From positions 57,908,001 through 57,972,000 of the forward strand of contig OX597825.1 in assembly GCA_951406725.2 (NCBI GenBank): 64,000 bases of DNA, given 5' to 3'. Shown piece by piece: positions 4,556 to 61,108 of the stretch. Position 1 is the first letter of the stretch; each line of letters begins with the position of its first letter. Position numbers and translations under genes: made by a program. The notes under the pieces were generated by a model. It was not told the DNA's origin and did no database searches. It worked only from the letters and a program-made list of their open reading frames with translations. This DNA comes from Octopus vulgaris. Its lineage: Eukaryota.

Positions 4556-7500
4556 TTATGCGGCAGCATCCATACGCAACATCCGTGCTACATTCTTCCA
4601 TCGTTCTTTAAACACTTTCTTAGTCAGGCATTTTCTCTCCAGCCCTATTTTCCTTTTCAGATGGAAGATGAAGTAATTCATCAGTCCAGGGCCAGAGATG
4701 AAATTGCCTGACTCTAAACCTTTCAGCCTCGTCTTCCAAATCACCTCTCTCGCAATTGCTACTACAACGAGAAAACAATTCTTACCTTCTTTCGAGAGGA
4801 AATCCGGTGGGTCAATTTTTATTATAGACTCAGTCGACAGCTGTACTCTTCGTGTGCTTAACAACAGTTGTTCGGCATAAACCCACACCTCTGACACGTC
4901 CGAACATTGAACAATAGCATGCGGGACGGTTTCCCTATCCCGCTCGCATCTTGGACATGTCGGACTGCCTCGGCCACCGTGCCTTGCGAATTTGTCCCGA
5001 ACAGGTAAAGCTCCTCTGTAACACTGCCATGCCAGAGACTTCTGAAAGTTGTCCAGGGTCTTCGGCCCGAATGTACGTTGGAACAGACTGGCCAGCTGAT
5101 TATCATCGAGACCTAGGGTTTCCCTTAAAGTATCGTCACATTCCGCCTCTGCCAGCCCTCTATAAAAGAATGTGGTGGAACCCCCACTGCAGGCGTTGCC
5201 CGAGCGACGGAATAGCAGGAGTGCCTTGCGACACTCCGAATACCATGTGCCCAGTTTCGATCTTCGATTCAACCAGGTTTCCCATCCACCGAAACTAGTG
5301 AACTTGGGAAACATCAGTTTTGCCAGCGGAGACCACACCCGTTCACCATCCAGGTAGAGCCACAGATGCCTTAACTTCAGCGCATGTCTGCGCATCAACA
5401 GCCAAGGCATCCCTAGCTCACCCTTTAACGGTTGTTGACAGCAAGTAGAGCGTTTCACAAGCGGTTTCGAGCCCCTCCACAAAAAGTGAAAGAGCTGTCT
5501 TTCCAGCTTGATCAACCACGAATCAGGGCAAGGAACGATGGATAGGTGGTAGGTGATGACCGATGCGATGAACACATTGGCTACCGCCGCCCTTCCTTTC
5601 AGGATAGCCACCGCCAAGACCAGGTCTTGACTACTGCAGCCACCCTGCTCGATACCTCGGCCTAGTTTTTCTCTATTTGGAGGTCTGGTCCAAACCAAAC
5701 CCCTAGCAACTTCATCGGACCCTCCGTCCAACGTCCCACGAAACTGTCAGGAGGCATCGACTTGCCTCTCCAGGTGCCGAGCTGCAAGCCGACTGACTTT
5801 TCACGATTAACCTTTGCTCCTGCCACCGTCTCGTAAACCTCTATGGCCTTGCCTACCCTCTGTAGGTGATCCATTTTGGTTACGATGATGGCGATGTCAT
5901 CCGCGTATGCTGACACCGATTTTCCACCACCTGGCTGTCTCGGGATGCCGCTCAGTCTTCGCAGTAATGGCTCAAGAGCCATCACATACAAAAGCGGGGA
6001 GAGCGGACACCCTTGACGAACCGAGCGTTTGATGTTGAACGGCTTCGATAAGAAGCCGTTCACCCGAACTACCGAGTCGATGTTATCATAAATTTGAATA
6101 ATCCACCTGAGGAAGCCAAGGCCCAGGCCAAACTGTGCCAGAACGGACACCAGGTAGCGATGGCCGACCCTATCAAAAGCTTTAGATTGGTCTAAATGGA
6201 CCAGTGCCCCACCCTTGCCAGAGTCACTATTAAACCCCTCTATAGTGTACCGCATGAGATGGAGATTATCCTGAATGGATCTGCCGGGAACGACACGTGT
6301 CTGTGCCTCCCCGATCAGACCATCCGCGACACGCGCCAATCTTTTCGATAACACTTTGGCCAAAATCTTCACCTCTGTGTTAAGCAGAGTGATGGGCCAG
6401 AAATTATCAATACAATCCCCCTTGTTCGGGTCCTTTCTGACAAGCGTCACTACTCCCCGGCGCACAGACCTGGGAATAAACCCGTTCAGCTGCCAGTTCG
6501 CATAGACCTCCGCCAGTAGGTGCCCGAACAAGTCTGGCATACTCTTATATAACTCATAGGGTAGACCATCCAAACCCGGCGCCTTACCCGTGCTGCAGTC
6601 CGCCATCGCCTCAGCCACCTCCTCAGGCGTGATTGGCCCTTCACAGCTCTCCACGTCTCGCCCCAATAGGCGCGGCAGCCCGTCGAGGAGGTCCATAAAG
6701 TCCCTCTTACTATCCGGTCCGCCGCCCCCTCCGAAAAGCTGAGCGAAGTGCTCCTGAAAGGCCTGTCACACATCTCCTCGGGTTCGTTTATCAACTTACC
6801 TTGTTGGTTCGTCAAAGATCGAATTGTGGCATCATTACCACGTTGAGCTTCCCCCACTCGGGCCCATCTCGCGGCGTTGATTCCCTCACAACCCACTGCG
6901 CGGATCCTGGCCTCGAGGTGCTGGTTTAACGCCAGTCTCTTGGCCGCCACCTGAGCCAGTTTTCATGGCTTCCTCTAAATCCTTAACTAGGGTTGATCCC
7001 CTCCTAGCCTCTCTAGCCACTAATCCTATGCTATATCTAATTGACTCGAATTTAAGGGCTCGCTTGAGAGCATACCACCATTTGTTATTAATGATGGCAC
7101 CACATAGCGCCCTCTGAATCATAGTCCTAATCCGGTCTCTGTACTCCTTAATCGCCAAAAGGGACGTATTAAGTTTCCAATAACCGGAGCCTCTATTATA
7201 GACCTTATCTATGTCAAGCTTACAGGTGGCCATTTTATGATCACTGTAGCTGACCGGGTAAAACTGTGGACACTTAGCTATTTCTCTATCTACTTTTCTA
7301 ATTAGTATTCTATCTATGTAAGACCTGGAAGATCCGTCGCTACTTGACCATGTCCACAATGGAGCGTTCGGAAATTCCAACCTATAAGGATCTGCTAGCT
7401 CAAAACGTCTTAGCAGTTCCAGGAAGTCAGGGTTACCTTTTCTATCTTGACGCGAGCCAACACAATCTACATCCGCCTTGCAAATTGTGTTATAATCTCC

Positions 7501-7830
7501 TAGCACAACTAATGAATGTGAAGTACCAAGAAACTTCTCCAGCTCTCGAAAATACTCACTTTGCCCATTTTTTTTTGGGTGGGGGGTGTGCATAAATTGC
7601 AACCAGTTTGATAACTTTACCGTTACTGAACGTCAAATCCATGACGACCAGCCTACCTTCTGGATCTGAAAAAATTAACTTTTTCTCAAAAACCCGGTTT
7701 CTTCTTAATAGGACCAACACCCCACTCCCGCTGGCAGGACTGGCCGGAGAGAAAAAACTCTCGTAGCGGGAGCAGATCTCTTGGCCCCTCTAACCGGGTT
7801 TCTGTAGCAACAATGACATCCAAATACCTT
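4556..7830 (-). pseudogene. LINE ORF2: AP endonuclease, reverse transcriptase and C-terminal zinc knuckle (disrupted)
   Basis: APE motifs VLGDYN, SYIDRI, SDH. RT motifs KAPGLDG, LDQSKAFDRV, QGCPLSPLLY, YADD. Zinc knuckle CPRC...ETVPHAIVQC. Split over several frames. Confidence 0.9.
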
Positions 7831-7880
7831 CATATCAGTGGTCGGCTCGTTCTTCTTCATCTTTTTCTCTTTTGTCTTTT

Positions 7881-9165
7881 TCACGGGCCCATGGGGGGGG
7901 GGGAGTTACGCAGGCCCTCGAATATGTAAGGTGATATATCCATCCTCAGAGGGCCTACGTCATGGAAGAATTCGGACTTTATCCGTCCGTAATCCTTCTG
8001 GCCTAGTCTGTATATTATAAAATCTTTAGTTCTTTTCACTTTTCTTACCGTTGACATTGCTGCCAATCGGTTCACAAGTCTATTATTTGATGCCTTGATG
8101 GCCATAAATGTGCTGGTACTTTCCTTTCTCTTTTTCAGGTTAGATTTCTGTTTTTCGTTTTTTTTCCTTCCTTTTCTTGGTAATTGTTGACCACCCCTCC
8201 TCTTTTTCATTTTCCTCGCAACTTTCTTTTTCTGTTGTTTCTGTTGTTCTCTTCGGTGTTGCCTCAAGTGAGTTGTCTGGTGTTGTTTCTGGTGGTTTTT
8301 CCTCTGCTTCTGGTGGTGCTGTTTCTTGCGGTTTTGGCTGGCACTCTGCTCTTACGTGCCCCTTCCTGCCATAGTTGAAGCACCTTGGCTTCCTGCCCTC
8401 TACAAATACTATAACTTTCTCCTCCTCATTAATTTTTATGGTTTCTGGAATTTCTTCCAGCGTTTGAATTTCGGCTTGAATAGCCATTGATATGCACTGC
8501 CCCATCCAGTGCTCCTCTTCTTCTACTGTAGCCTGGAGAATGTTAATTTTTTCCTCCAGTCCTACCATGATTGCTGCCACCAGGCATGTGGCATCTACCT
8601 CAGGAGGCATATTATTAATCTTAATTTTTTAGGTCCTTCGTCCCCTGTAACTTGGGAGAAGGACTATCTCATCTGCTTTCAATACTTCCGTTGATAGTTT
8701 TTTTGCTACTTCCTCCGACCTGAATCTCACCTCTACTGTTCCAAATCTCTTTCCTCGATTTGAATATGTTATTTCTTGCCAGATTTGTTTTAGACATTTT
8801 TCTATCTTCTTTTCCTCCACTCTTTGTATTGACTTTTTTGTTACATTGTAAGTTTTATATATTATTCTCTTTTTGTCCACTTCCTCGGTTGTATTCACGT
8901 TGGGTGTTATTATTGATTCCGTGCCTTCTTTCTTTAGGTTTGTCATGTACCTTTCCAGGTTACTTTTTTCTGTGTTGATTTTTCTTTGCTTCTTACCAGC
9001 AACTTCAGAAAATTTATTTGCTGGGGCTTTGTTCGCTTTCGGCGACACTGCCGGTGAACTTTCTTCACCTGACTCAGGTGAGTATGGAGTAAGAGTTTCC
9101 ACTTCCACTAATAATGGCTTAAAAAAGCCTTTCGCAAAAATTTTGGCTTCACAAGCTTTTTGCAC
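7881..9165 (-). pseudogene. LINE ORF1 (gag-like, CCHC knuckle; disrupted)
   Basis: RCFNYGRKGHVRAEC is a degenerate CCHC knuckle. In-frame stop at 8629 and a basic C-terminus. Confidence 0.8.
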
Positions 9166-9926
9166 AGTTTTGTATATAGTAACACAATAATTCTCCCGCA
9201 GGGGGGGGGGGATTTTAACACGTAGCCTTCAAACAAAGGCAAATAACAATTTTTCAACAACAAAGAATCAACAAAATTCACAGTGCACAGTCACAATAAC
9301 AAGTCAATGTACCGGTATTAAAGAATCCAACTAACAAAGTAACATACTCAGTAGAAGCATCTTTCGAGAAATCAGACATTACATACAGCCAAACTTCATA
9401 TAGATACTTAATGCTAGCTAATTAGCAAATAATCTTATGTAAAAGCCGTGCACACCTCCATCTGGACTATTCCATTTCTGCACTTAAATTTTATTTTTTA
9501 TTTATTCCTATTCATGTGAAACCACTGATTCAAGTTCAAGTCATTGATGCAATTTTATACCAATTGCTATTTTTACTTTTGTTATGTTACGATTATATTA
9601 TACTTTAGTTTGATTTTAATTATTACTTACTACATATAATTCAATTGTTATTATTATTTTTATTGTTAAAGTGAAAGTATCTGACATAAAATAGAGAAAT
9701 GTTTTTGTTTCACTTTTAACACGTAATACTGAAATAGTGGAGAAGATATGATATTGCTATTGGCTCGCTCTATGTAAGAAGTTGAAGATTTTTTTGCCCA
9801 CGAAACTACATGGACCCTAAGTAAGGCATGTGTAAAATTTGAATGAAGTTGGTTGTGTAGTTCTCAAGTTTTAGGGAAACACACAGACAGACAGACACAC
9901 ACACATTCTCAGTTTTATATATAGAG

Positions 9927-11966: not shown

Positions 11967-12116
11967 CTACGGACATTCTGGTGGTATTTGGTTCTTTTGC
12001 TGTGAACATTCGCGGACAATACATTCAGCAACATCTTTCATGTCTTCATCATTTTTCACAGAAGTAAACAACAGGCCTCTGTCCATTCGAGTCATTATAA
12101 CATCACCTTTGAAGTC
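11967..12116 (-). CDS. ureG: UreG-like coding exon 6 (DFKGD...PPECP*)
   Basis: Acceptor tttctttaatgaacag|GAC; TAG stop at 11969-11967. Confidence 0.85.
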   Translation of the reverse strand, partial: DFKGDVIMTRMDRGLLFTSVKNDEDMKDVAECIVRECSQQKNQIPPECP

Positions 12117-13607
12117 CTGTTCATTAAAGAAAAAGACAAACAATAATAATCCTTTCTAATATAGCCACAAGGCCTGAAACTTTTTGTGGGGGTGGGGGCG
12201 GGAGGCAAGTTGATTACATTGACCTCAGTGCTCAACTGGTACTTCTTTCATTGACCCTGAAAGGATGAAAGACAAAGTCAACCTCAGTGGTATTTGAACT
12301 CAGAAGGCAAAGAGGCAAACAATATGTCACTAAACCATTTATCCAACACGCTGTGATTCTGCCTACCAACCACCTTAATAATGATATTAATAATAATACT
12401 AATATACAGACAGGTAGGTAAGCAACCAGATTGATTAAGTGGCAGACTGATTTGCTTGGTTGTTTAGGAGACCTATTGAGTCAAGTATGTCAACATCAAC
12501 ATCAAAATAAAAATCAAATGGAAATTGTACTTATGATACCTGTGCTGGTGGCAGGTAAAAAGCACCATCCGAACATGGCTGATGCCAGCACCGCCTGACT
12601 GGCATTCATGTCAGTGACACGTAAAAAGCACCAACTGATTGTGGCCGTTTGCCAGCCTCCTCTGGCTCCTGTGCTGGTGGCACGTAAAAAGCACCCACTA
12701 CACTCACGGAGTGGTTGGCATTAGGAAGGGCATCCAACTGTAGAAACACTGCCAGATCAAACTGGAGCCTGGCACAGCCTTCTGGCTTCCCAGACCCTGG
12801 TCAAACCGTCCAACCCATGCTAGCATGGAAAATGGACGTTAAAGGATGACGATGAAGATGATGGATGGTTGTTTAAATACTATGACAAAATCTCAATGAA
12901 AGCATCTTAAAGTTTCATACACCTACCTCCATATCAATATCCAGTGCTTTTTCCAAATCTATTTTGTTGACTACAAGTAACTCGCAGTAATCATTACCTG
13001 CTATCCGTTTCTTGATAACGTTCTTGCCACCTAGAAAACAGAAATTATTGTAATTATTAACATTATTATTGAGTGAGAGAGCCCAACATACCCATCATGA
13101 CTACCCATCTGATAAGGGTACACCAGGCACATGCATCACAACCATATGTGCATGACACAATGACCTCAAATCAAGATGAACAGCCCAAAACCTTGCAGGT
13201 GGGGGTCCAGTTAGAATTTTCTTCATGTCAAGTAGCCCATCCTGCTCAAAATGTCCCTGAATAAGGGTTATTTTAGGATAATGAATGAAACATCCATGTT
13301 ACCAGTGGTGAATTATTCAAACCCTATAAAATTGCTCCCCCACTACTTCTGCTTATGATAAGAGATGCACATATCATCAGCCACTAAGGGACATACTCAA
13401 CTGGTTAAGGTGAAGCAACTAATAAGCAAATCTGTGGTATTGAACAGAATATTTGCTGTAGCCCATCTTTTACACCAAGACAAAACAATGTACATGATTG
13501 CACTTCCAATCAGTTAAGATCAAAAGCCTTGAAAGCCACTGTCCAGTACTGCATCAGGGCATTATTATCAATTCCAGATCTTGTACATATAGTAGAAAGG
13601 ATTATTA

Positions 13608-13753: not shown

Positions 13754-16062
13754 GGCAGTGAGTAGGCAGAATCATTAGCATCCCAGGCATCCCCCAGTAT
13801 GCTAATGATTCTGCCAGCTCACTGCCTTAATAACAACAACAACAACTTCTACCAAAGGCATAAGTCCTGAAATTTGAGGGAAGAGACAAGTCAATTAAAT
13901 TGACCCCCAGTGTTTCACTGGTACTTGATTTATTGACCCCCGAAAGGATGAAGAGCAAAGTCGACCTTGGTAGAATTTGAACTCAGAATGTAGCGGCAGA
14001 CAAAATACCTATTTCTTTACTGCTCACAAGGGGCTACACACAGGGGACAAACAAGGATAGACAAATGGATTAAGTCGATTATATTGACCCCAGTGCGTAA
14101 CTGGTACTTATTTAATTGACCCCAAAAGGATGAAAAGCAAAGTTGACCTCGACGGAATTTGAACTCAGAATGCAGCGGCAGACGAAATACCGCTAAGCAT
14201 TTCGCCCAGTGTGCTAACGACTCTGCCAGCTCACCACCTTCCTCATATTAATCATAATGGATACAAAGATGTCTCATGTTTTCAAACATGGATTTAAGGA
14301 TCAATTGTAATAAATATTTACAACATAAATAAATAATTGATAAAAACCAAAAGCAAAAATTGTGTGAGAAGCTGTAAGGGAATCAAACCTGCAATGTCAA
14401 TGACTAAAATGGTATAATCCACCAAATCTCTGTCAAAATGTGCTGCAAGACAATCCCCAGCAGATTCTAATAGAATTATTTCAGGTTGAAAGAGTTTGGT
14501 CAATTCTTTGATTTCTTTCAGATTTACATCAAGATTCTATATATATATAAAAAAAAAAGAAAATACAGAAAAAACATAAACAATGTGTGAGAATTTGAAA
14601 GTATGAGAATGATGATGATGATGATGATGATGATGACGGTGGTGGTAGTGGTGGTTATGATGATGATGATGCCAATGAAGATGATGATGGTGATAGCAAT
14701 GAGATATACAATGCAAAAATTCTTTAAACAAATATATTTTATAAAGAAATCATTTACATTTACTAATTAATCAAATCTATCTACACAGTGAACTTGTATC
14801 CATATCAGCTCGAAAAACTACTAAATTATATCGTTTTCTTTTAATCTTTTTTACTTGTTTCAGTCACTGGACTGTGGTCATGCTGGAGCACCACTTTGAA
14901 GGATTTTAGTCAAATGAATCGCCACCAATACTTATTTTTAAGCTTGGTATGTATATCATCAATTTATTTTTGCCAAGCAGCTAAGTTATGGGGACATAAA
15001 CAAACCTTCACCAGTTGTCAGACAGTAGTGGGGGATAAACACACACACATATGTACATATGTACATATATTATATAATACACACGCACACACACATACAC
15101 ATACATGCATATATATATAAAAGATGAAGGTGGAAATAGCACAGAAGTAAATCAAAGACATTTCAATTTAGAAAGAATTGAATAAAATGATTTAAAAACG
15201 ATATAAAGAAAGTATAAAATATTACCAGTTTCATTGATGAATGTCATTCTATCAAATATTCATAAAAATTTATAAAAAACTTGAGGTAAAATAGTTTATC
15301 TCCAGGATTTTTTTTATTGAAGTCTTCTTTAAATATAGTCTGGTACAGAGTTCAATGTGTTAGAGAGAAAGAGAAGGGGTGGAGTTGTCTATTGTCTAAA
15401 AAAATCTCATTATTGTAGTTTTGATGTTTTTGTATCTATTTTAAATATATATATATATAAGATGGGCTTCTTACAGTTTCCGTTGGAAAGCAAACTTCTT
15501 ATATATATATATATATATACAACAAGCTCCTTTTAGTTTCTATCTACCAAACCCACTCATAAGGATTTGGTCGGCCTGGGATTATAACAGAGGACATTTA
15601 TTCAAGGTTCATGCAGCAGAACTAAACCCAGAATCCTAAAGTTGAGAATTGAATCTTTACAACAGTCATGCCTGCACTTGTATAACAGATAAAAACTGAA
15701 AATATTTTTAAATAGACACAAAAACATATCATATGATAATGATAATAATAATAATAATAATAATAATTCTTTCTGCTATAGTACTTAACTGGTGCTTATT
15801 TCATCAACCTTGAAAGGATTGGAGGCAAAGTTGACCTTGGCAAATTTTAAAGGTTGTGACAGGCAAAATACCACAAAGCATTTCGTTCAGCATGCTAACG
15901 ATTCTGCCTGCTCGCCACCTTATTATTATAATAATAATAATAATAAGGCCTGATCGCTTAGCCAGCGGGGTGGCGTCATTTGAAGGCTAAAACAATGTGA
16001 AGCGCATTGTGACCAGCGATGTGTAGTAACATCTGATAACCTGGTCGGTCACAATGATGATG

Positions 16063-16143: not shown

Positions 16144-18226
16144 CCTCAATGTCTTAGCAATAATCATAATATTGCTTTCAAATTTTAGGCACAAGGCCAG
16201 CCAGTTCATGGAAGGAGATAAGTCAATAACATCAGCCCAGTGTTGCACAAAAATATGAAATCAGTTGATTTAAAAGGGAAATGGACAGAAAAATGGAACA
16301 CAATAAGATTAAGCACACAAAATAACAAAATCCCGTAATTCAATAGAAATTATTCACACATCTAATCAACCCTAAAAGATGAAAAGCAAAATCAAGTCCA
16401 GCAGAACTGGAACTCAGAACATAAAGACAGACAAAATGCTGCCAAATATTTTGCCACCCTAATAATAGGATAGAAAATAAAAGTAAAAAAAAACACAACA
16501 TTACTTTATTCATGACTTCCAATGGACATCCTTCTGTTACGACAGAACGAACTTTCTCTTTTGGAATAGCATTTTGTTGAATCAAGATGTCAGCATCAAT
16601 ACTGAAGAATAAATGTGTATATTTATACAATAATAACAATAATAATAATAATAATGAAAATAATAACGAAAATTTTAGAAAATAAAGATAAGAAATAAGT
16701 GGAAATTTTACCGGTGAGTGTATTAAATAATAAGGCACTATAAGAGAATGACTCTCCCCAGACACAACAGAATATGCTTCAACACACGAACTCATATAAA
16801 GAATCTTGCAAACCAAATCCCAAAACAAAAAATAATAATGAAATTATTGTGTATAGTGCTTAGGTGCACTACATCTCATCAATGTACAATACATAGAATT
16901 ATGTACAAAAGTCAGGAAAGTGAAGTGTATGAGACATGATATATGTGTTCATGTGTATGAGGCGGGATATTAGGTGTAGTGTTGGCAAATTTCATGAAGC
17001 ACGGAGGTTTTAAAGGATGCAATGTCTTGGCAACTAACAACTGATACAGGTAGTTTGTCCCATGCTTCAGTAACTCTGAGTGTGGAAAAATGTTTCGAAA
17101 AGTCATGGGAGCTGTGCTATTTTCTGACTTGGTAGGCAAGGTCACATATGTTAGACACATGGAACTCAAAAAGGTGCTCCAGGGGGCTGTTGGAACGAGG
17201 GTTAATATTTTTGTGGATGTTTGCCAAGTCAGTTGCCAGACATCAGAGCTTCAATGTATCTATGCCCAGGGAAGCAAGGCATTCAGATGATGTCAATAGG
17301 CAATCTACATCTATTAAAAACACAGACTGCTTTGATGTGTTAATAATTCTAAAGTAATTTTAAAGTAATCTTTCTAAAACACTACTCACGTGCTGTAGAA
17401 ATCATTGGTTACAACACAGATATTGCGATCTTTCAGAATCTTACACACAGCAAGGATAATGGCGGTTTTCCCTGAGCCAACTGGACCATGAATGCCCACT
17501 GTAAATGCTCGCTGAAATAGAACATTAGTTATTTTATACAATTTTGCTTTACTTTTTTGTTTGGCGAAAATATCATTTACAGTTACTATGGTTTCAGGTG
17601 GGGGATAATGAAGAAGACTATAGATTTATAGTTGCTATGGTTTCAGGCAGTGGGGTAATGAGGAGGACCACAGATTTATAGTTGTCATTGTTTCAGGTGG
17701 TGGAATAGTGAAGGGGACCAGTGTCACCTTAAGATATAGGGACACTGGCAACTGTTTGGTAGTCCCAAACAGATCTAGAGATCCACTGCTAATCTGTATT
17801 ATGGTTGTATATGTATGAACCCCAAAGGATTACTTTACCTGAGTGGCTTATAATGCTGTTATGATGGCCCTGGGAGAGACTTATGATTATCTTTGCTCTA
17901 ATTTCACTTAGCGCAACAGTGAGGAAAACTACCAACCAAACCATTGTGAGATCAAGCCTTGCAGTTACATTGCAGTTGTTGTTGTTGCTGAGATAATTGT
18001 TACTAAATCACAAGGATGTATAGATACAATGTTCAGTTGTGGTTTGTATAGGCACAGGAGTGGCTGTGTGGTAAGTAGCTTGCTTACCAACGACATGGTT
18101 CCAGTTCAGTCCCACTGGCTGACACCTTGGGCAAGTGTCTTCTACTATAGCCTCGGGCTGACCAAAGCCTTGTGAGTGGATTTGGTTGACGGAAACTGAA
18201 AGAAGCCTGTTGTATATATGTATATG

Positions 18227-22600: not shown

Positions 22601-23446
22601 TCACACTTGAATGGTGCTTTTTATGTGTCACTGGCATGGAAGCCAGTTAGCTGCTCTGGCAACGATCATGCGTGGATGGTGCTCTTAGCGCTCCACAAGC
22701 ACGGATACCATATATGTTGGGCTTCTTTCAGTTTCTGTCTACCAAATACACTCACAAGGCTTTGGTCAGCCCAATGCTATAGTAGAAGACACTTGCCCAA
22801 GGTACCATGCAGTGGGACTGAACCCAGAACCATGTGGTTGGGAAGCAAGTTTCTTATCACACAACCACACCTACACAGACTTCTTTCAAGTTTCATCTAT
22901 CAAATCCACTTACAAGACATAAGTTGATTTGGGGCTATAATAGAAGATATCTGCCAAAGGTGCTGTGCAGTGGGTCTGAAGCCAAGACCACAGAGTTGTG
23001 AAAGCAAAAACTTCTTAACCACACTGTCACTCCTGCATCTATTATTTGTTTCAGTCATTTGACTGCAGCCATGCTGGGGCACTGCCTTGAAGAATTTTTT
23101 AGTCAAATGAATTACCCCTAATACGTATTTTTCTTTTAAGCCTGGTGTTTATTCAATCAGTCACTTTTGCTCAACCACTAAGTTATGGGGACAGAAACAC
23201 ACCGGCACCAGTTGTCAAACAGTGGTGAGGGACAAACACAAACACAAAGATGCACACACATATAAACAGACAAGATGCTTGCCCAAGGTGCCTTGCAGTG
23301 GGACTGAACCTGCAGAAGAGTGACAAATAGAAATAGAGAAATAGTAATGTAAAAAATATCAAGAACATTTTGAATTGTGTTAGGATCCTTACTTCATTCC
23401 AGTTGGTTCGGTAGAAATTCTGATCCGGTATTCTTCTGCCTGCCAT
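11967..23446 (-). CDS. ureG: Urease accessory protein UreG-like G3E GTPase, 6 coding exons, 224 aa: complement join(23393-23446,17390-17511,16505-16601,14389-14536,12927-13030,11967-12116)
   Basis: All introns are GT-AG, phases are compatible (0,2,0,1,0), and the 675-nt frame is open. Protein: [224 protein letters not shown]. Colinear with eukaryotic UreG (ERAFTVGIGGPVG.GKT, VTND, ESGGDNLAA.F.RELADY.I..IDV.GG, LLV.NK.DL). Confidence 0.92.
12490..12865 (+). mobile_element. SINE with RTE-like 3' tail (inverted copy at 22185-22710)
   Basis: Internal GGCACGTAAAAAGCACC repeats; tail GGAAGGGCATCC...AACCCATGCTAGCATGGAAAATGGACGTTAAA(GAT)n. Confidence 0.6.
12927..13030 (-). CDS. ureG: UreG-like coding exon 5 (G4 motif NKID)
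   Basis: ttttctag|GT...GAG|gtaggt; reads [35 protein letters not shown]. Confidence 0.9.
13070..13560 (+). repeat. ~500-bp interspersed repeat embedded in (ATT)n (other copies 50048-50552, 50614-51160, partial 54445-54612)
   Basis: Shared termini GAGTGAGAGAGC...GCATCAGGGC, abutting ATT microsatellites. Confidence 0.8.
13850..14240 (-). mobile_element. Nested Meta-domain-type tRNA SINEs
   Basis: Reverse complement of the SINE at 23753-23973 (CCCCGAAAGGATGAAAGGCAAAGTCGACC...GAATTTGAACTC), present twice. Confidence 0.7.
14389..14536 (-). CDS. ureG: UreG-like coding exon 4 (G3 region ESAGD)
   Basis: tatag|AAT...GCAG|gtttga; reads NLDVNL...[28 protein letters not shown]. Confidence 0.92.
16505..16601 (-). 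CDS. ureG: UreG-like coding exon 3 (CPH-equivalent motif = CPL)
   Basis: ttcttcag|T...AAA|gtaatg; reads [32 protein letters not shown]. Confidence 0.92.
16700..17330 (-). mobile_element. CR1/L2-type LINE 3' fragment
   Basis: Reads [32 protein letters not shown], resembling the CR1 ORF2 C-terminal motif (R.NFFS.RV...WN.LP..VV...S...FK). Confidence 0.6.
17390..17511 (-). CDS. ureG: UreG-like coding exon 2 (Walker A GPVGSGKT)
   Basis: ctatttcag|CGA...AC|gtgagt; reads [40 protein letters not shown]. Confidence 0.95.
18050..18470 (+). mobile_element. CORE-type tRNA SINE (intronic)
   Basis: Full head GGCACAGGAGTGGCTGTGTGGTAAG...GTTCAGTCCC, CORE box, and tail GAAACAAGTAAAAGAGTAAAAGAG. Confidence 0.85.
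18805..19032. repeat. Inverted repeat (~60-bp arm) with tandemly duplicated right arm
   Basis: TTAGGACTAATGTTGCTGTAATTTAGCCCCAGGAGA...CCAGCTGG is reverse-complemented at 18919-18970 and again at 18981-19032. Confidence 0.8.
19298..19539. repeat. Long near-perfect hairpin (~113-bp arms, 15-nt loop)
   Basis: 19298-19412 is the reverse complement of 19428-19539. Confidence 0.9.
23393..23446 (-). CDS. ureG: UreG-like first coding exon (exon spans 23393-23469)
   Basis: ctcttttttag|ACC...ATG GCA GGC...GAA|gtaagg. RTNWNE joins RAFTVG, as in the eukaryotic UreG R.F.ERAFT segment. Confidence 0.85.
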
Positions 23447-23752
23447 TATTATATAAATGAATAACAGGTCTAAAAAAGAGACATAAAATGTCATATGAGA
23501 AAGAGAGAGAGAGAGAGAGAGAGAGATAATGTCAACCTGTTTGCAGCCATGTTTGTTGAAATACACTATTTTTATTTCAATTAACTTTGAAAATGATGAA
23601 GAATATAGTAACATAGCTTTGTCATTAATAAGCTGGTGTTTGGAACATAAATTAACAGGAAATTTTGATGGAAGTTTTAATTTAGATTATTTTAATACCA
23701 GAAATTTGTGTCATAAAACGAAGGGTGATCTATAGCAGGTATAGCAGCTTGG

Positions 23753-24599: not shown

Positions 24600-26150
24600 T
24601 CGTTCCGTTAATCATGGTACCCAAATCTATTTTTGCATTTTCCCGGATTTTAATTTTCATTAGCAATCCCGCAGTTATAAGTTAGTTATGACCGAAGATC
24701 GCTATTCATAATTTCTGTTGTTGAAAACATCGGAATCCGAGGAATACCGCCCGCCTTTACTGCCCTTTTTTGTGAGCGAGTGGAGGTGCCTATTCGATAA
24801 AATTATCATGGAATGATTATAATTTATCGCTATAGGTAAAACTACGAATGATTTATTATTAAAATACGAAGACAGAAGAATGTAATCGAAAACTGAATTT
24901 TTGAATTGCAAGCAATGTGTAATAGATTTCAAAAAACAAAAAAATCGTATAAGTATGTTATTTTGATGATAACTGATTCAGCTTGGCGTGACATTTCTGT
25001 TTTTTAACTCTCCTTCAATTTTTTCTATTATGTTGATGCATCATTGGAATCAACAAGTACTGAATACTGTGGCAGTTGCTGGGTAGACATACCAACAATA
25101 CGCACACTTTATATTTTATCGCGTCATCTCCCTGGTGATTATTACCAAATTGCTTCGCCCTTCATGCGAAAGATAGCCCAATACTTGAATACAAAAAAAT
25201 AAAAGAAACCCAGCGAATATCAATTTAATATTAGTAGTCGCTTCGAGCAATTTGTCGGTTAACTAGATCCTTGAACTACTACACTGTGCTATTAGATACT
25301 TTCTGAAATACACTTTCTAACAAAAAAAAAATGCACTTTCTAACAAAAAAGAATTATTGTAGAAAAGGCAGGATGTTTTTTTAATTGCTTATAATAATAG
25401 GACAGTTCGATCGGGGTGGAGTTAGGACTAAATAACTACAGATTGTTCGGATAATGCCGTGTATGTTACATACAACTACTAAAGACAAAAAAAAAGTTAA
25501 CGATCATTCGAATTAATGATTATCGAATTTAACAAGAAGGTATTTTAAGGATTTACTGTAATTTGACGGTTTTTATGTTTATATTTTAATTACTCTACAC
25601 TGAAAAAATATTAATACGAAATTCCTTTGGTCGGTATGCATTGGCCAATAATTAAGAGACCGATGCTAAACAGGAATCAGAAAACAACGTAAGCGATGCA
25701 TTAAAGTACAATTCTTTGATAGATTCCAATAAATGTTCGAGTTACTTCATTAATGACATATCTGTAACCATAAAACTTACCTTTAAAATTAGAAACACAA
25801 CTTCCCGTTATATTTGACTAACTATAGCAGCTCGGAACAGCAATAAGTTTGCGAATATAATTGAAAAAAAAAAGTCTTTCTGGACTTTGATCAAACAATT
25901 CGGATAATAAATTATAATGAAAATTAAAAAAGATCGGATAAAGAAAAGTTATTGGTATTTTTCTGTTAAAAAATATTAACATAGATTTGTTTTTAGTCAA
26001 CGGAATATATTTTAAGGGATCAGTAGCAGTCTTTATTTAAACAATTATTAAGCCCTTGCCACTAGCTGGTGCTGATCGGTGTGTGTGTGGGCGTCTATTT
26101 ATAGCATTTTTCCCGTCCTACTTTTTTAATTCTTCTCATTGGCAGACAAG
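24600..26150 (-). promoter_or_regulatory. Probable promoter and 5'-UTR exon region of the ureG-like gene (candidate donor AAAG|gtaagt at 25781/25780)
   Basis: Repeat-free, CpG-retaining segment upstream of the first coding exon, which starts at a splice acceptor and so needs an upstream UTR exon. A consensus donor site is present. Confidence 0.45.
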
Positions 26151-26649: not shown

Positions 26650-27806
26650 TTGCATCAACTTGCTATAAAAGCAGGTAGTAATTTTACCTTGCACTTGTTC
26701 TTAGTGCAAGTTTTGAAGAGTGCAGTTCGATTTTAACATTTATTTTTTCAAAGCTATAATGGAAGTGACAAAAGACCATATTTTGCTTGATGGGTTAAAT
26801 GGAGGTAACAACGCGACAGAAAGTGCGGAGAATATTAATGTAGTATATGGGGATCGGACAATAAGCGTAAGCCAGGGTCAATGGTGGTTCCAGAAATTCA
26901 GAGCTGGAAACTACAGCGTAGAAGACGAGCCTCGGCCTGGAAGATCTGTAGTGTTCAATGAGGACATTCTGTAAACCTTAGTGGAACAAAATCCCATCGT
27001 AACTGTTGAGGAGCTAGCAGAGAAGCTTGGATTTGGTCATTCAACCATTCCTCGACACTTGCATGCCATCGGAAAAGTCAGTAAATCGGTTCAATGGGTT
27101 CCTCATGTACTTTCCTAGTCTAATCACGCGCAGAGAGTGAATGTGTGCTCTTCTTTACTGTTGCATCTCATGAATGGACCTTTTTTGGACCAATCCCTGG
27201 TGATGAGAAATGGGTTCTCTATAAAAATGTGTAGCACCGAAGACAGTAGGTAGGGAAAGGAGAAACACAGGTACCCCAGGCTAAAGAAGTTCTTCACCCA
27301 CGTATGTTGTTATCTGTTTAGTGGAATATGAAAGATTTAGTCCACTTTGAACTCTTAAACCAAAACCAAACGAAAATAAAGAAGATATACAGTGAGCAGT
27401 TTAAGCGGCTTAAGTCAGCACTAGAAAGGAAACGACCGTCTTTGGTTTCAAGCCGAAAGGTGTTCTTCCATCAGGGTAATTCTCGGTCACATACAGCGAG
27501 GAAGGTATTCCAAAGGCTGGAACAGTTTGAATGGGAAGCAATGCCTCGCCCACCATATTCACCAGACATTACCTCATCTGATTATCATTTATTCCACAGT
27601 CTTCAAAATCATTTAGACGGAAAAAATATGAATTCTGTAGATGAGGTCAGAACAGTACTGAAGGAGTGAATTTTGGAAGAGAGGGCTTGCAAGTCAACCA
27701 GATAGATTGAAGATAATTGTAGAAAATAAAGGAGGGTATACTTTAGATTAATATAAAACAACCGCATTATTTAAAACAACCGCATTATTTATGGGAAGAC
27801 CTAGTA
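26650..27806 (+). mobile_element. Near-complete inactivated mariner (DD34D) transposon
   Basis: HTH ORF 26720-26974. ORF 27328-27669 contains FFHQGNSRSH...PPYSPDITSSDYHLF. 3' TIR-like end CCGCATTATTTATGGGAAGACCTAGTA. Confidence 0.88.
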
Positions 27807-30960: not shown

Positions 30961-32200
30961 CGAGGGACGTTCAATAAGTAATGCCCCTGACCCACTTGCA
31001 GTTGTTTGATCTAGCTGAAATTTTGCATGTGCTAATATTGATATCTCTATAGATTAAGTGGCAAATTACAGCTCTGAACATATAGTGGTCTTTGATTTAC
31101 AGGTGTTTGAACTGAGTCAAGTGTGAAATGGAGCCTGTTGAATGTCGAGCGGTTATCCGGTTTTTGTATTTGAAAGGACGCACACCACGGGAAACTTTTG
31201 ATGAAATGAAAGTAACTTATGGTGATGATGCCTCATCATATGACCTTGTAAAACACTGGCATTGTGAATTCAAACATGGTCGGAACTCTGTGGAAACATC
31301 CCAGATCTGGTCGCCTCCTTTCTGCCATTGATGAGGCATCTGTCCGTCAAGTTGAGGCTGCCATTTTGGAAGATCGACGCACAACTATCATTCATGACCA
31401 TTTGCATATGCAAAAGGTGTCTGCCAGATGGATTCCCAGGTTGCTCACACCTTTCCAGAAGCAAGAATGTGTCGAGTGCTTGAAGATGAATTTGGAGATG
31501 TGCCAAGAAGATGAGCCAAAACTTTTCAAAAGTCTGATTACACAGGATAAAACCTGGGTCCATCACTATGATCCAGAGACCAAAGCCCAGTCAATGCAGT
31601 GAAAGCACCGTGACTCAGCTCCTCCAAAGAAGGCAAGGGTGCAGCCCTCCGCTGGCAAGGTCATGCTCACAGTCTTCTGGGACCAGGACAGAGTAGTGAT
31701 GACAGATTTCCTGGCAAAGGGTGCCACAATTACAGGAGTCTATTATGCTTCACTTTTGAGGAAATTAAGAGAAGCTATCAAAATCAAGAGGCGGGGCAAG
31801 ATCAGCAAAGGCATCCTCCTCCTGCAGGACAACGCTCCGGTCCACAACTCGCGTGTCGCCAGATCAGAAGCACAGGCGTGCGGCTATGAGCTCCTCCCCC
31901 ATCCCCCCTACTCTCCTGACCTTGCACCCTCTGATTTTCACCTCTTCCCAGCCATGAAGTTGTTTTTGAAAGGAAAGCGTTTCCCAGATGATGCAGCCTT
32001 GATTTCTGAAGTCACGTCGTGGTTGGAGGACCAAGCTGGGGTCTTCTACAAAAACAGTCTCCAGAGCTGCATTAAACGATGGGAGAAATGTGTAACTCTG
32101 GGTGGTTCCTATGTAGAAAGAGACTAAAAACTGTGCCAAGTTTCGTTGCTCTACTGCTATGGGAAGTGGGTCAGGGGCATTACTTATTGAACGCCCCTCG
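30961..32200 (+). mobile_element. Complete mariner transposon (1240 bp) with disrupted transposase at 31128-32127
   Basis: 33-bp TIR CGAGGG(A/G)CGTTCAATAAGTAATGCCCCTGACCC; TG/TA flanks; motifs WIPRLL, TQDKTW, LLQDNAPVH, HPPYSPDLAPSDFHLF. The empty TA site is at 10107-10108. Confidence 0.95.
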
Positions 32201-34534: not shown

Positions 34535-35410
34535 ACAAGTTGGTACGAAAATATTCCCGGGCTAGTTATGTTTAATAAAATATAACTTATTTACCAAAAG
34601 CCTAAGATCATCTTCGCAATAGTCACCGTGTGCAGCAATACACTGGTCCCAGTGTTCCTGCCACTTTTGGAATCCGGCCTGGAAGTCGTTTTCCGTAAGC
34701 AAGTCGAGGACACTTCTGCACTTCGCTCTTGATCTCGACAACGATGTTGAAACGGCGACCTTTGAACTGCATTTTTATCTTGGGGAAGAGATGGAAGTCC
34801 GCAGATGCTAAATTTGGTGAATAGGGCGTGTGCGGAAGCGATGCGACGTTGTTTTTGGCGAGAAACTCACAAGTGAGGAGAGCAGGAGAGTTAGATGATA
34901 GGGTGCATTGCCGCCGTGAAAAATCCAGTTCTTCGAGCTCCCCAGATCTGGTCGCTTTTGCCGAATATCCGCAATCAAACGCTTCAAAACGTGACAGTAG
35001 AACTTCTGGTTGATGATCTGGCCCTGAGGGACGAATTCTCAAATCACAAAAGCAGGTATGTCAAAAAACACGATGAGCATACTGTTGAGCTGCGTGCCTC
35101 CTTTGTTCGTGGAAGAGATTTTCCATTGTGGAAACTGCTGCTTCGTGTCAGGGTCGTAGACTCAACTCTCGCCACCGGTGAGGACGTTCTAAGCTTATTG
35201 CAAAATTTCATATTGGTTCTTTGTTCCAATTTCCTGTCCATGACAAAAATCGCAGACTGCAACATACATGTGATCATAAAAACACAAATTTCACCAACTT
35301 GCGAAGTAAACAGTAATGTCACTCAGCACACTGCCTCATGAAGGTCACTGCTAGCTCCCACTGTGCACACAACCGTGTGCTGCCATCTGTTGGTGCGCCA
35401 TAGAACTAGC
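34535..35410 (-). mobile_element. Degenerate, internally deleted mariner
   Basis: Motifs LPHTPYSPNLASADFHLFPKIK and MDRKLEQRTNMKFC. Confidence 0.75.
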
Positions 35411-55989: not shown

Positions 55990-58460
55990 GAGAATTTATT
56001 TAAAAAAAACAAACAAAAGACGATGACGAGTGTGTAAACAAGAAACAGATGTATTAGTTTAACGCTCGGGAAGTGAGAAAGTCTTTTACGTTTTGAGCCT
56101 ACGCTCTTCCACAAAAAAGAAACACAGAAATAAACAGGGAGAGAAATTAGAAAAAGGTATAGTGGCTAGCGATCTATCATAGTGAATGCCGGACAAAGGG
56201 GTCACACAGGAGAGCTAGGGAGAAGGGGAGATAATAAAGTAGTAGTGATCCCAAAACGAAGGTGCGCGTGCGTGTGTGAGAGCGTGTATGAACTTGTGGA
56301 AGGGTGCTGGTGACATTGACGTGTCCTTGTGTGCATGTGTAGGTGTGTGGATAATGGTGTAGGTGCTGGGAAGTGGTTAGTGCTAGTGTGCGGGTAGGTG
56401 TGATGTGGTGAGGTGTGGTGTGGTTTGGTGGTGTGTGGTGTGGTGGTGTGTGGTCTGGTGGTGTTGGAGTGTGGGGGAGGCGAGAGTGGGGGAAGCAAAG
56501 GTGGGGGTCTAAGGGATGGGGTGGAGGTACGATGGGATGTATAGGGATAGTGAGGTTAGAATGTGTAGGGGTGGGGTAACGAGGGAGGAGTGATGATGAA
56601 GGGATAGGATGGAAGGGAGAAGGTAGGTAGGACTGAAGAGAGGAATTAGGTGCCAGAACAAGAGAGGAGAGGTGAGTGGGAAGAAGAAGGTGTGAGATGA
56701 AAAGAGGTGAGAGGAGGAGAGTTAGATGAAAAGGGAAGGCGGGATGAGCCCATGTGACGCAAAAGAGCGAAGAGAGATTAATCCCTGCTCACGGCGAAGA
56801 CGTGAGTCCGGATGGTCCCTGTGCAAGGACAATCCGAACACAGACAGGTGTTATAAAGAGTGACCGTTAAAGCAGAAATGGCGCGGGACCGGAGTGTCGT
56901 TTCCGAGTCGGATGTCTCGGAGATGTTCCGCGAACCGGTTAGCCAAGCGGCGTCCCGTTTGACCGATGTATAGAGAAGAACAGAGAGAACAGGAGATGCA
57001 GTAGATGACGTTGCTAGAAGTGCAGGTGAAGGATTTGGTGATATGATAGTGTCGATGACGGGTGCCGGTGAGGAGGGTGGTGTTGGAGAGGTTAGGTCAA
57101 ATGCGGCAGCGTGGGCGGAAGCAGAGGAGCGAGCTGGGTTGGGAGGTTGAGTTAGGGAAGCGGCTGTGGACCAGAAGGTCTCGTAGGTTGTGGGCTCGTT
57201 TGAAGGAGGGGTCGGTTAGGGAAGATGTGCGAAGTGGAGGCATCGGACTGGAGGTAGGGTGATGGCGGGGTAGGTGAGGGAAACGGGAGACGGGTGACGG
57301 AGGGGTGGGTGCGGGGGAGAGAGCATATGCATGGTCCACGGAACGTGTTCTGGCAAGGGCGGTGTGGATAGTAGTGATGGGATATCCACGTAGGATGAAG
57401 TGGCGAGCCATGAGTTGAGACTGAGTCTCAAAGTCATGGTTGTCACTGCAGAGTCTGCGTTGACGGAGGAATTTGGAATAGGGGATGGAGATCTTGATGT
57501 GTTTAGGGGGGATGAGGAGAATTTGAGGTGTGAGTGTGAGTCTGTGTGTTTGTAAAAATCACCTGCGAACGAGAAGCAGTTAAGTGATAGGAAAAGTTCG
57601 GCCAGACGAAGGAGTGTGGATGTGTCCGGTTGGGGGTTGGGTCGAAGGTCAAGGAAATGTTGGAGTGCACACAGCCCCTCGTGCTGAGGGAACACCGTGT
57701 ATATTAGACTCTTGATGTCAAGAATGAAGAGAAGTTTAGAGGAGCCAGGAGGGAAGGAAAAAGAGTTGAACAAACGAAGAGCATGGCTGGTGTCATGGAT
57801 GTGAGATGGGAGGGAAGCCACTAGGGACGCAAGGACACGGTCAAGATATCTGGAGATGAGTTCGGTGGGACAGTTGCAGTCGGAGACGATGGAGCGACCA
57901 GGGTTGTTAGATTTGTGGATTTTGGAGTGGAAGTGCGAGGGGTGCGGGCAATGAGGTTAGAGGCGGTGAGGAGGAGATGAGGTCATCGATAGAGAAGAAC
58001 ACAGTCTGTTGGTAGCTGGGCGTGGGGTTGGAGGGCAGAGGGTATTAGAAGGAGGTCACTTGAAGTTGGCGGAGAGCTTCCACCTTGTAGAGGTCCGTGC
58101 ACCACACTACCACGGCTCCACCTTTGTCGACCGGTTTTATGATGATGTCTGTGCGGCGTCAGAGACATCGAAGAGCCAAGAGTTTTGATGGAGAGATGTT
58201 CAGCTGTCAGGGACGCTTGGAAAATTCAAGCCGGTCCACAGCACGCTGGCAGGCGCCCGCAAAAAGATCGACTGCTTGGAACTGGCCAGGTGCTGGCGTC
58301 CACTGGGATGGTCGGCGGCCCAGGTCGGTGAAGCAGTCCTCCTCATTAGGTGCAGGTGAAGTGTCGTGGAAAAGCGCACACAACTTAACGCGGCGCACAA
58401 AGCTGTGGATATCGACACTATCCGAAATTCGTTGCTGGATGGAGTGAGGAGGATGAATAG
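55990..58460 (-). mobile_element. Penelope-like element (Neptune-type, RT plus GIY-YIG), internally deleted
   Basis: Motifs IIIKPVDKGGAVVVW, IHKSNNPGRSIVS, LFILDIKSL, RGYP, C.RPRCRIC and NVIYCISC..C..LYIGQTGR. Tail with a hammerhead-like motif at 56087-56111. Confidence 0.9.
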
Positions 58461-58461
58461 C

Positions 58462-59335
58462 ATATAGAACATCTTTTACTATGAGCGCTGTTTAGAAAAG
58501 TTTATATTTTCGAAGTTATTTCGTGTTAAAATTGTAGTATTTGGGTAATTTCAACCAATCAATGACGTCTATTGAGCTGAATAAAGTTACTACTTTTGTT
58601 TGTCAATAACAACTTCCAGCGGTGTATATTTCATTCGTCAGTGTTATTTATGACATATTTCATCCCAGTTACGTTCGCATGAAAAACGAGTGTATCTGAA
58701 GTACGTTTTTCTTCATGACACCACCATAATCGTTCATGCATTTCTACTGCTTTTAGGTTTTTTCCTGTTTTACAGCTACTATTTTCGGAAAGACTTTCTC
58801 CAATCCCCCCCCCCTCCAGACACACACACATTTTCTCGCAAATTATTGCTTTTTGCCAAAAGCGCAGCTTTTCGGATACAGAGATTCCGGAAAATTGCCA
58901 AAAATTGGAATTTTGAAATTTCCCTCCTTACTCATCCTCCTCCAATTTCTTCATTTTTCACTTTTTCCGTAACTCTAACCCTAAAACCCAACCCTAACAT
59001 TAAAACCCTAACCTAACCCTAACCCTAAAACCCTAAAGCTAAAACCAGTACAAACGCACGAACGATGTCATAAATAACAGCGACTAACGAAATATACACC
59101 TCCAATAGTTGTTGACAAACAACAGCAGTAATTTTATTCAGCTGAATACACGTCATTGATTGGTTGAAATTACCGAAATACGACAACTTTAACACGAAAG
59201 AACTTTGATAATAGAAACTTTTCTTAACAACGCTAAGAGTAAAAGATGTTCTATATAACACATTCTACCGGTATACGAAAGTGTTTAGTTAAAGAAAATT
59301 AATTAATCGAGCTACCCATGAAAAGGAAACGATCC
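58462..59335. mobile_element. Inverted-repeat non-autonomous element with internal degenerate (TAACCC)n
   Basis: 58462-58655 is approximately the reverse complement of 59066-59257. TAACCC-like array at 58970-59045. Related to the 43229-44467 termini. Confidence 0.65.
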
Positions 59336-59654
59336 GGTGTTTCTCTAAGTGAAGTGATTCGTCGCTGAGTAAACTTGAATGTTAGAATGGTTAAGGTAGC
59401 AAGTTGGGAAAGTCGTTAAAGCGATGATAAAACATTCCTAGAGGTAGTCTTCAAGGCTGCCTGCGTTCTAAATTCAAGTGTCGACGAGGTCAACGTTTCA
59501 TTGGTTGTTTCCGGAGTTGAAAAAATACCAGACTGGTACTGAATTCCCCCACCCCCCACCCCAATTCTCTCTCACCTCTATCTCCCTTCCCCTCTAGTCA
59601 GTCTTTCCTCGATGTTATATTTTTCATTCTCTTTCTTTTTTTTTGTCTGTACAA

Positions 59655-61108
59655 GACTTCGCGGCAGACGACTGTAAGGAGTGGCCATGGGAACGCGAAT
59701 GGGCCCCCAACTATGCGAACCTGTTCGTTGGCTATGTTGAGGCCCAAATATTCTCTAATTTCACTGGTCCCACTCCTGAACTATATGGTCGTTACATTGA
59801 CGACATTATCGGTGCCACCTCACTCTCCCGTGAACATCTAGATTCCTTCCTCTCTTTCGTCCAATCTTTCCATCCAGCCCTCCACTTCACTTCCACTATC
59901 TCCAACACCTCTGTCTCCTTCCTCGACATTTCGGTTAGCATTCTTCACTCCACTCTTACCACCTCCATTCACTACAAACACACAGACTCACACTCATACC
60001 TCAACTTCTCTTCCTCCCACCCAGAACACACCAAGCTTTCCATCCCCTATTCCCAATTCCTCCGTCTACGTAGGCTCTGTAGTGACGACCATGACTTTGA
60101 GACTCAGTCTCAACGTATGACTCACCACTTCACTCTACGTGGATACCCCCTCACCACTATCCACACCTCTTCCCTAACCGACCCCTCCCCTCTTTCAAAC
60201 GAGCCCACAACCTTCGAGACCTTTTGGTCCATAGCTCCTTCCCTGACCCTACCTCCCAACCCGGCTCGTTCCCCTGCTCCCGCCCACGTTGCCGCACTTG
60301 CCCTTACCTCTCCAACACCACCCTCCTCACTAGCACCCATCATCGACCCTATCCCATCATCCACTCCTTTACCTGCACCTCCAGCAATATTATCTATTGC
60401 GTCTCTTGCTCTCTCTGCCATTCCTTGTACATCGGACAAACGGGACGCCGCTTGGCTGACCGGTTCGCGGAACACCTTCGTGACATCCACCTTGCGAACG
60501 ACACCCCGGTCTCTCGCCATTTCCGCTCCACCGGTCACTCCTTGCAACACCTATCTGTGTTCGGTTTGTCCTTACACAGAGGCCATCCGGATTCCCGTTT
60601 GCGCCGTAAACAGGAATTAATCTTCTCTCTTCGCTCTTATACGCCATTTGGTCTCAACTCTCCCCCCTCCTCATCTAACCCCCCTCTCCCCCCTCCTCAC
60701 CTAACTTTCCCCCCGACCCCTACTTCTTCAGTCCTTCATCCTTTCACCCCTACTCCCCTTCCCTTCTTCCCTCTTTCTCCCTCCCTCCTTCCCTCTTCCC
60801 TTTCCCTCTGCTCCCTCACTCCCCTTCTCTCTCCCACTCTCCCTCTTTCCTCCTTCCTCCTCCCCTCCTCCTCTCCTTCCTTCTCCCCTCCTCTCTCTCC
60901 CCCTCCTTTCCTCCCCCTCTTCTCCCCCTCCCCCTATTCTCCTCTCTCCACACTACACAACACGCCTTTACACATCACATCATATATGATGTGCCATACT
61001 AATACATACACCAACTAATACGTACTAATACATACTAATACATACTAATACATACACCAACCCTATACATACACACGTCCAGACCTCTCATACGCACTAA
61101 TACTCCCT

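Follow-up and report, generated by a model that had tools for sequence, protein, structure and literature searches.

A UreG relative in coleoid cephalopods without the histidine of the Cys-Pro-His nickel motif

We found that the genome of Octopus vulgaris contains an intact, spliced UreG relative in which the histidine of the Cys-Pro-His (CPH) nickel motif is gone, and that this loss is real and shared among the coleoid sequences that we found. To our knowledge, the motif has so far been described as invariant in UreG, and we know of no other job for UreG than the nickel loading of urease, with cross-talk to hydrogenase. The reading that we favour, and to which we give about an even chance, is that of a protein likely inherited and likely repurposed after the loss of urease, which would now act as a GTP-gated dimer that binds a thiophilic metal via four cysteines and serves a new client. 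We prefer such a thiolate metal carrier to a metal-free switch, a drifting relic, the partner of an overlooked urease and a gene of foreign origin. A conventional role as the nickel chaperone of urease, which the sequence-only reading of this DNA had already doubted, is very unlikely, because His68 is needed for the Ni/GTP dimer, because every cephalopod sequence lacks this His and because urease, UreD, UreF and a CPH-containing paralog were not found in the genome. Indeed, according to the available part of the source, the H. pylori UreG variant H68A stays monomeric and binds little Ni (PMC3792862; excerpts on the CPH motif in general: PMC7408563, PMC7355429). An earlier report of a cephalopod UreG was not found in a literature search in which general cephalopod papers ranked first in one query and which left most subscription papers uncovered. 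The databases mislabel the protein in both directions, as “ureG” in Sepia and as “uncharacterized” in Argonauta.

The gene lies on the minus strand of the window, by which we mean the whole analyzed stretch of 64,000 nt (contig OX597825.1, positions 57,908,001 to 57,972,000). Splicing reconstructed from the window gives six coding exons, separated by five phase-compatible GT-AG introns, and a frame of 675 nt that encodes 224 amino acids and has a single terminal stop. The P-loop, TND and NKID motifs are intact and the frame is free of lesions, just as had been claimed. The first coding exon (23393..23446, −) opens with the ATG at 23446, aligns with the N-terminal 18 residues of the Argonauta protein P0001 and is followed by a GT donor; its 18 codons contain no His, so that the protein indeed has no His-rich N-terminal tail. 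The acceptor at 23469 probably marks the start of this exon, and a candidate non-coding 5′ exon with a good GT donor and no ATG may lie at 25781..25871 (−). The second coding exon (17390..17511, −) encodes the G1 P-loop (GPVGSGKT) and G2 (TND, with Asp55 corresponding to H. pylori Asp37) and is matched by a contig of run X12 with 0 other letters. It is followed by the exon with the changed metal loop (16505..16601, −; EGCPL vs GGCPH), in which Asp61, the equivalent of Asp43, is kept and Glu42 is replaced by Ile. The next exon (14389..14536, −) contains G3/switch II (ESAG) and directly thereafter Asp-Cys. By motif reading and alignment, the fifth exon (12927..13030, −) encodes a rebuilt GDKIPRKGGPG loop, which retains its basic pair as KK, together with the G4 motif NKID. 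Finally, the last coding exon (11967..12116, −) aligns as a block that is identical among the cephalopods and unlike canonical UreG, and it ends with a conserved C-terminal Cys and the stop.

There are signs that the gene is spliced and expressed. The 896-nt contig of run X12, which is likely RNA by a program's guess, none of the listed runs being recorded as such, jumps from 17390 to 16601 with CT..AC ends and spans the 97-nt CPL exon; the length of the candidate 5′ exon would suit its 92 leftover letters. Within the CPL exon, no mismatch to the genome appears among the 40 of 94 difference rows listed. The DNA runs X4, X5 and X8 gave no cover of this exon beside a skipped repeat, which carries no evidential weight. 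Elsewhere in the window we observed a frameshifted LINE retrotransposon with endonuclease, RVT_1 and zf-RVT domains and upstream ORF1-like frames (4556-9228, −), broken mariner/Tc1 transposase copies (31252-32127 and 27322-27669, +; 34623-35060, −), two of which match PF01359, and two inverted broken copies (56778-60620) that by eye have a Penelope-type RT/GIY-YIG look and gave no Pfam match.

The codon read-out places Cys84-Pro85-Leu86 at 16520..16528 (−), with Cys as TGT (16528-16526), Pro as CCA and Leu as TTG (16522-16520). Cys-Pro is thus retained, and His is replaced by Leu as the sequence-only reading had reported; the last N of the motif that it quoted for this region is encoded by the following exon and not by the exon 16601-16505. 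Its descriptions of ESAGDC (14467-14450) and of the altered GDKIPRKGGPG loop (13030-12927) hold as well. We rejected a sequencing error or RNA editing as the source of CPL. TTG is three base changes away from CAT/CAC and therefore does not represent a single-base error, the genetic code rules out that A-to-I editing of TTG gives His, and the His is missing in every ortholog.

These orthologs came from a protein search with a single exon, in which four of 28 candidates matched: Argonauta P0001, two Logan clusters, one of which includes the Sepia pharaonis “ureG”, and one ENA exon fragment. The full-length orthologs read CPA, CPM and CPM, and all of them carry ESAGDC. Together with the CPL of the window, the His is absent in all four cephalopod lineages of our set, which comprises the window, Argonauta, Sepia and the cephalopod-like cluster P0002; no Nautilus sequence was found. 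An alignment of orthologs, which had been proposed to see whether CPL is fixed, hence gave a divided answer: the loss of His is common to all four, but Leu itself is not fixed. Since the position varies among Leu, Ala and Met, the shared trait is the loss of His. An ortholog that retains His, named beforehand as a refutation, was not present among the cephalopod sequences. The window protein is 80% identical to the Argonauta hians relative, and cephalopod and animal UreGs share 38–46% identity.

A search with a cephalopod profile yielded 4535 proteins among 8000 candidates. Of the 120 that were listed, 33 are from named animals, and 10 of those are from molluscs. Only this profile search gave named animal relatives; none were listed after single-sequence searches with the Argonauta protein, and the ESM Atlas returned only canonical UreG clusters. 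When the three rows of cephalopods are set aside together with P0277 (a duplicated model from Mytilus, likewise with CPH), the list leaves a canonical set of 116 non-cephalopod UreGs, and CPH is present in every one of these listed matches (116/116). A Cys at the near-invariant Asn103 position was found in 10 of 423 UreG-like proteins with an ExxGD motif, all belonging to the cephalopod clade. We also saw unrelated UreG-like proteins without CPH (P0160, P0197, P0164, P0209 and P0230, e.g. with GMWGR or GIWSR in His-rich eukaryote-like proteins), which suggests that a repurposing of UreG may have occurred on more than one occasion; among the 423 proteins examined, none of these has the new switch-II Cys.

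This new residue, Cys120 (14450..14452, −), is, by the sequence counts and by the dimer contacts predicted for the corresponding residues of Sepia, C83 and C119, our candidate for a second metal ligand beside Cys84. The sequence-only reading had suggested several extra cysteines as alternative ligands, and this stands for GDC, which contains Cys120 and is common to all four cephalopod sequences. The cysteines of DYC and ECIVREC, in contrast, are not conserved among them and are therefore unlikely ligands, so that we discarded them. Of the cysteines named there, only C120 and the C-terminal C223 are, beyond that of Cys-Pro, common to all four; the conserved Cys near the C-terminus is encoded at 11975-11973. 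The cephalopod orthologs outside octopus have N-terminal Cys pairs (CxxC or CC), which the window protein does not contain.

The protein shows the G3E/SIMIBI fold with G1, G2, ExxG (G3) and NKxD (G4). With UreG (H. pylori 4HI0, K. pneumoniae 5XKT; TIGR00101) it has in common the fold, G1–G4, Cys-Pro and the equivalents of Asp37, Asp43 and Lys131. It differs from UreG in that His68 is gone, Asn103 is replaced by Cys, the stretch that follows CPH is rebuilt, as is the GDKIPRKGGPG loop, and the His-rich tail is missing. The cephalopod orthologs, on which the scoring was done, reach 137.9–152.4 bits with TIGR00101, below its cut-off of 204.2, whereas Pecten and Patella pass with 260–263. Hence three marks of UreG are lacking: the invariant CPH, a TIGR00101 score above the cut-off, and urease, UreD and UreF found in the same genome.

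In HypB, the available part of one source places one Cys in the G2–G3 loop and one in switch II (PMC11672702), and in a Ni/GDP structure reported in another, four cysteines hold Ni in a square-planar site that spans the dimer (PMC7055735). The cephalopod protein has the same layout as HypB (H. pylori 4LPS, M. jannaschii 2HF8), with a G2–G3 loop Cys and a switch-II Cys that are predicted here to meet across the dimer. The second Cys of HypB, however, stands four residues after the G3 glycine, while that of the cephalopods stands two after it and thus two residues earlier. The cephalopod protein also has no Cys-His motif, is only 21–26% identical to HypB, and its orthologs score 46–59 bits with TIGR00073 (hypB), below the cut-off of 121.2. 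The resemblance would be convergent. From COG0523/ZNG1, which binds Zn through cysteines (PMC11672702, in part), the cephalopod proteins of 221–226 amino acids differ by having neither a CxCC motif nor a C-terminal domain. ZNG1/CBWD (COG0523), the zinc chaperone of METAP1, and MMAA/MeaB are the other animal G3E GTPases, each with a dedicated client. On contig C8 (L001:1500-2090), we also noted a second G3E GTPase gene, in which a PDLVP-type motif stands at the N-terminus and the P-loop is split; by its motif we take this gene to be ZNG1/CBWD-like.

Structure prediction, which the sequence-only reading had proposed for the dimer, was performed on the Sepia ortholog. AlphaFold reached a pLDDT of 83 with an alignment of 46 sequences and of 43 with one of four sequences. 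The Foldseek top fold hits of the Sepia model were 5XKT (TM 0.78, rmsd 2.1 Å) and 4HI0. When the homodimer of Sepia P0271, in place of the window protein, was modelled by ESMFold2 with GTP and with Zn supplied as input, it scored 0.39 compared to 0.02 for the best control; since UreG/HypB-like dimers have already been solved, this score may reflect likeness and not binding. Of the solved pairs, 21 of 30 reached the mark for dimer scores, and of the animal pairs 7 of 16; none of 23 single chains did so. The runs agree in at least 80% of the contacts with a pLDDT of at least 82, and the predicted contacts include C83-C83′, C119-C119′ and C83-C119′. In the model, four cysteines of the two chains may thus meet at the dimer interface.

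For UreG, GTP-induced salt bridges between the subunits are described that involve Asp37, Glu42, Asp43, Arg130 and Lys131, and the D37A/E42A pair marks positions needed for GTP-dependent dimerisation (available part of bioRxiv 10.64898/2025.12.08.692910). In H. pylori numbering, mapped by hand, each of the four cephalopod sequences retains Asp37, Asp43 and Lys131; Arg130 is K, R or H, and Glu42 is lost in three of four. We therefore modify the earlier view of eroded partner interfaces: the motifs have changed, but mostly to new fixed residues (15 columns), and the salt-bridge residues are largely preserved in the way just given.

In the mechanism that we propose, GTP bound at the intact G1–G4 motifs would close a UreG/HypB-type dimer via the kept Asp37/Asp43-Lys131 contacts. 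On closure, each chain would contribute its Cys84 and the new Cys120 of switch II to a HypB-like Cys4 site in place of the Cys2His2 nickel site; hydrolysis of GTP would then reopen this site and set the metal free. As a guess, Zn or Cu would be a more likely cargo than Ni, and the newly fixed surface residues may form the face for a new partner. Weighing against such a Cys4 carrier are the loss of Glu42 from the GTP-dimer pair in three of four sequences and the offset of the new Cys by two residues from that of HypB.

The strongest competitor, which we regard as unlikely, is a repurposing that does not depend on metal, in which the protein would be a GTP-dependent dimer switch or scaffold and the interface cysteines would be structural or redox-sensitive as disulfides. 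The fixed replacements and the intact G motifs suit this equally well, and four cysteines at a predicted two-fold axis would suit disulfides as well as a metal. Cys-Pro is, however, kept in all four sequences while the remaining loop varies, and a cytosolic location would disfavour stable disulfides. There is a precedent in that MeaB/MMAA-type G3E GTPases act without carrying a metal ion, but the second Cys of the cephalopods became fixed in exactly the element where the sister family has its metal ligand (PMC11672702, available part).

That the gene is a relic, which has been drifting under relaxed selection since urease was lost and has taken on no particular new function, is in our view improbable. 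Such a relic would fit the very long stem branch of the cephalopod clade (1.0, 3.0 or 5.5 changes per column under different models), the identity of only 62–64% between octopod and decapod sequences compared to 76–80% among other molluscs, and a 3-residue deletion directly after CP in Argonauta. The octopod-decapod split dates back some 270 million years. However, the frames are open in all four lineages, the four sequences have 115 identical columns, 27 of these identical residues occur in fewer than 5% of canonical UreGs, the crown branches are short relative to the stem, and the gene gives signs of splicing and expression. The 116 canonical sequences have 97 columns that are at least 95% invariant. 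The four cephalopod sequences all retain the canonical residue in 44 of these columns and all share a different one in 15; in 14 columns it is lost and the replacement varies, and in the remaining 24 it is retained in part. Cys-Pro, Cys120, the rebuilt loop and the C-terminal block are fixed across the four. A long stem with a short crown would be consistent with a burst of change followed by renewed constraint. The 15 fixed replacements together with the predicted Cys cluster lend support to the earlier suggestion of a neofunctionalised or metal-altered GTPase. A decoy GTPase, suggested alongside, is left without support, because no urease machinery was found with which a UreG relative could interfere.

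Urease itself is likely absent from the one genome that we searched (2.8 Gb, 227 contigs). An exon-by-exon search, which can miss genes and in large genomes scores only the best candidates, gave no match for urease, whether queried with the N-terminus of alpha, with beta or gamma, with the alpha family as a whole or with a bacterial UreC of eukaryote-like type, and none for UreD and UreF, which are weaker tests than urease. As positive controls, TIGR00101 and Pecten UreG each recovered two exons of the diverged UreG gene and nothing else, so that the second, CPH-containing UreG that the sequence-only reading had asked to look for did not appear in this genome with either query. PF01979 found four non-urease amidohydrolase exons in the same genome, and PF02492 gave only the UreG locus and one ZNG1-like locus. 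In bacteria, ureC lies within ~7 kb of canonical UreG in 71 of 80 fetched loci. According to the available parts of the literature, urease is known in Aplysia and sea urchin (PMC2667541), in Nematostella, Branchiostoma and Ixodes (PMC3073912) and in Acropora (PMC3750612), and the accessible section of a further paper mentions urease in marine invertebrates only in general terms (PMC8777255).

Even less probable than a relic is that urease is still matured here, the urease system having been missed by assembly or search and the chaperone having co-evolved to a Cys4 nickel site. Other molluscs retain a canonical UreG, Aplysia has a urease (PMC2667541, in part), a HypB Cys4 site is able to carry Ni (PMC7055735, in part), and the best-candidates scoring in large genomes leaves room for an oversight. 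Yet four urease-subunit queries and the eukaryote-like UreC remained without a match while far more diverged UreG exons were found, UreD and UreF were likewise not found, and the Tyr39/Phe switch and loop residues past the His position are altered in the cephalopod sequences.

As to the origin of the gene, the comparisons of sequence and gene structure hint at likely descent from a molluscan ancestor with an inherited UreG. In a quick tree (47 rows), the cephalopod clade is nested in the animals with supports of 94 and 92; in a careful tree (34 rows, with 13 dropped including four long bacterial outgroups), it joins the diatom-like P0122 at 89/90. In AU tests, a grouping of the cephalopods with animals was not rejected (p 0.40), and one with molluscs was not rejected either (p 0.35). 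At animal-diagnostic columns, the cephalopods have the animal residue in 4 of 16 cases and P0122 in 1 of 16. Canonical animal UreG (bivalves, gastropods, annelids, arachnids, echinoderms, lancelet) appears to have four intron positions in common with the octopus gene. This comparison is indirect, as it uses the points at which incorrect or incomplete gene models of UreG from mussel, spider and slug break; these coincide with four of the five octopus intron positions, the fourth intron being outside the comparison. The breaks precede RAFTVG in Mytilus P0393 and Argiope P0322, fall within the codon ahead of EDW in Mytilus P0277, precede DYSLN in Trichonephila P0432 and follow GADLK or GASLD in Araneus P0334 and Arion P0426. 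In Mytilus edulis, several ureG models (P0277, P0394-P0399) that are partial or duplicated in tandem lie on one chromosome-scale contig. That the same repurposed protein was instead acquired horizontally from a protist or alga after loss of the animal copy is the least probable alternative of all, for although P0122 is the partner in the careful tree and the best non-self match among the 50% cluster representatives, the long-branch placement is unstable between the two trees, an animal origin is not rejected by the AU tests, the diagnostic residues and the matching intron positions lean towards the animals, and the top profile matches are animal UreGs.

In summary, the coleoid cephalopods of our set have a UreG relative, apparently expressed in the octopus, in which the histidine is dropped and a new cysteine is fixed. 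More tentatively than for the thiolate carrier as such, it is possible that the coleoids lost urease and that its chaperone became a third G3E metallochaperone of animals, next to ZNG1 and MMAA, with a HypB Cys4 site rebuilt convergently and with zinc or copper delivered to a cephalopod client. A UreG kept without urease provides a natural experiment on how a G3E GTPase changes its metal site and its client, and the cephalopod protein offers a direct test of what the step from Cys2His2 to Cys4 does to metal selectivity. The finding points to an unrecognised metal-handling step in cephalopods and, if the favoured reading is true, this would be a metal-delivery route that has not been described in animals.
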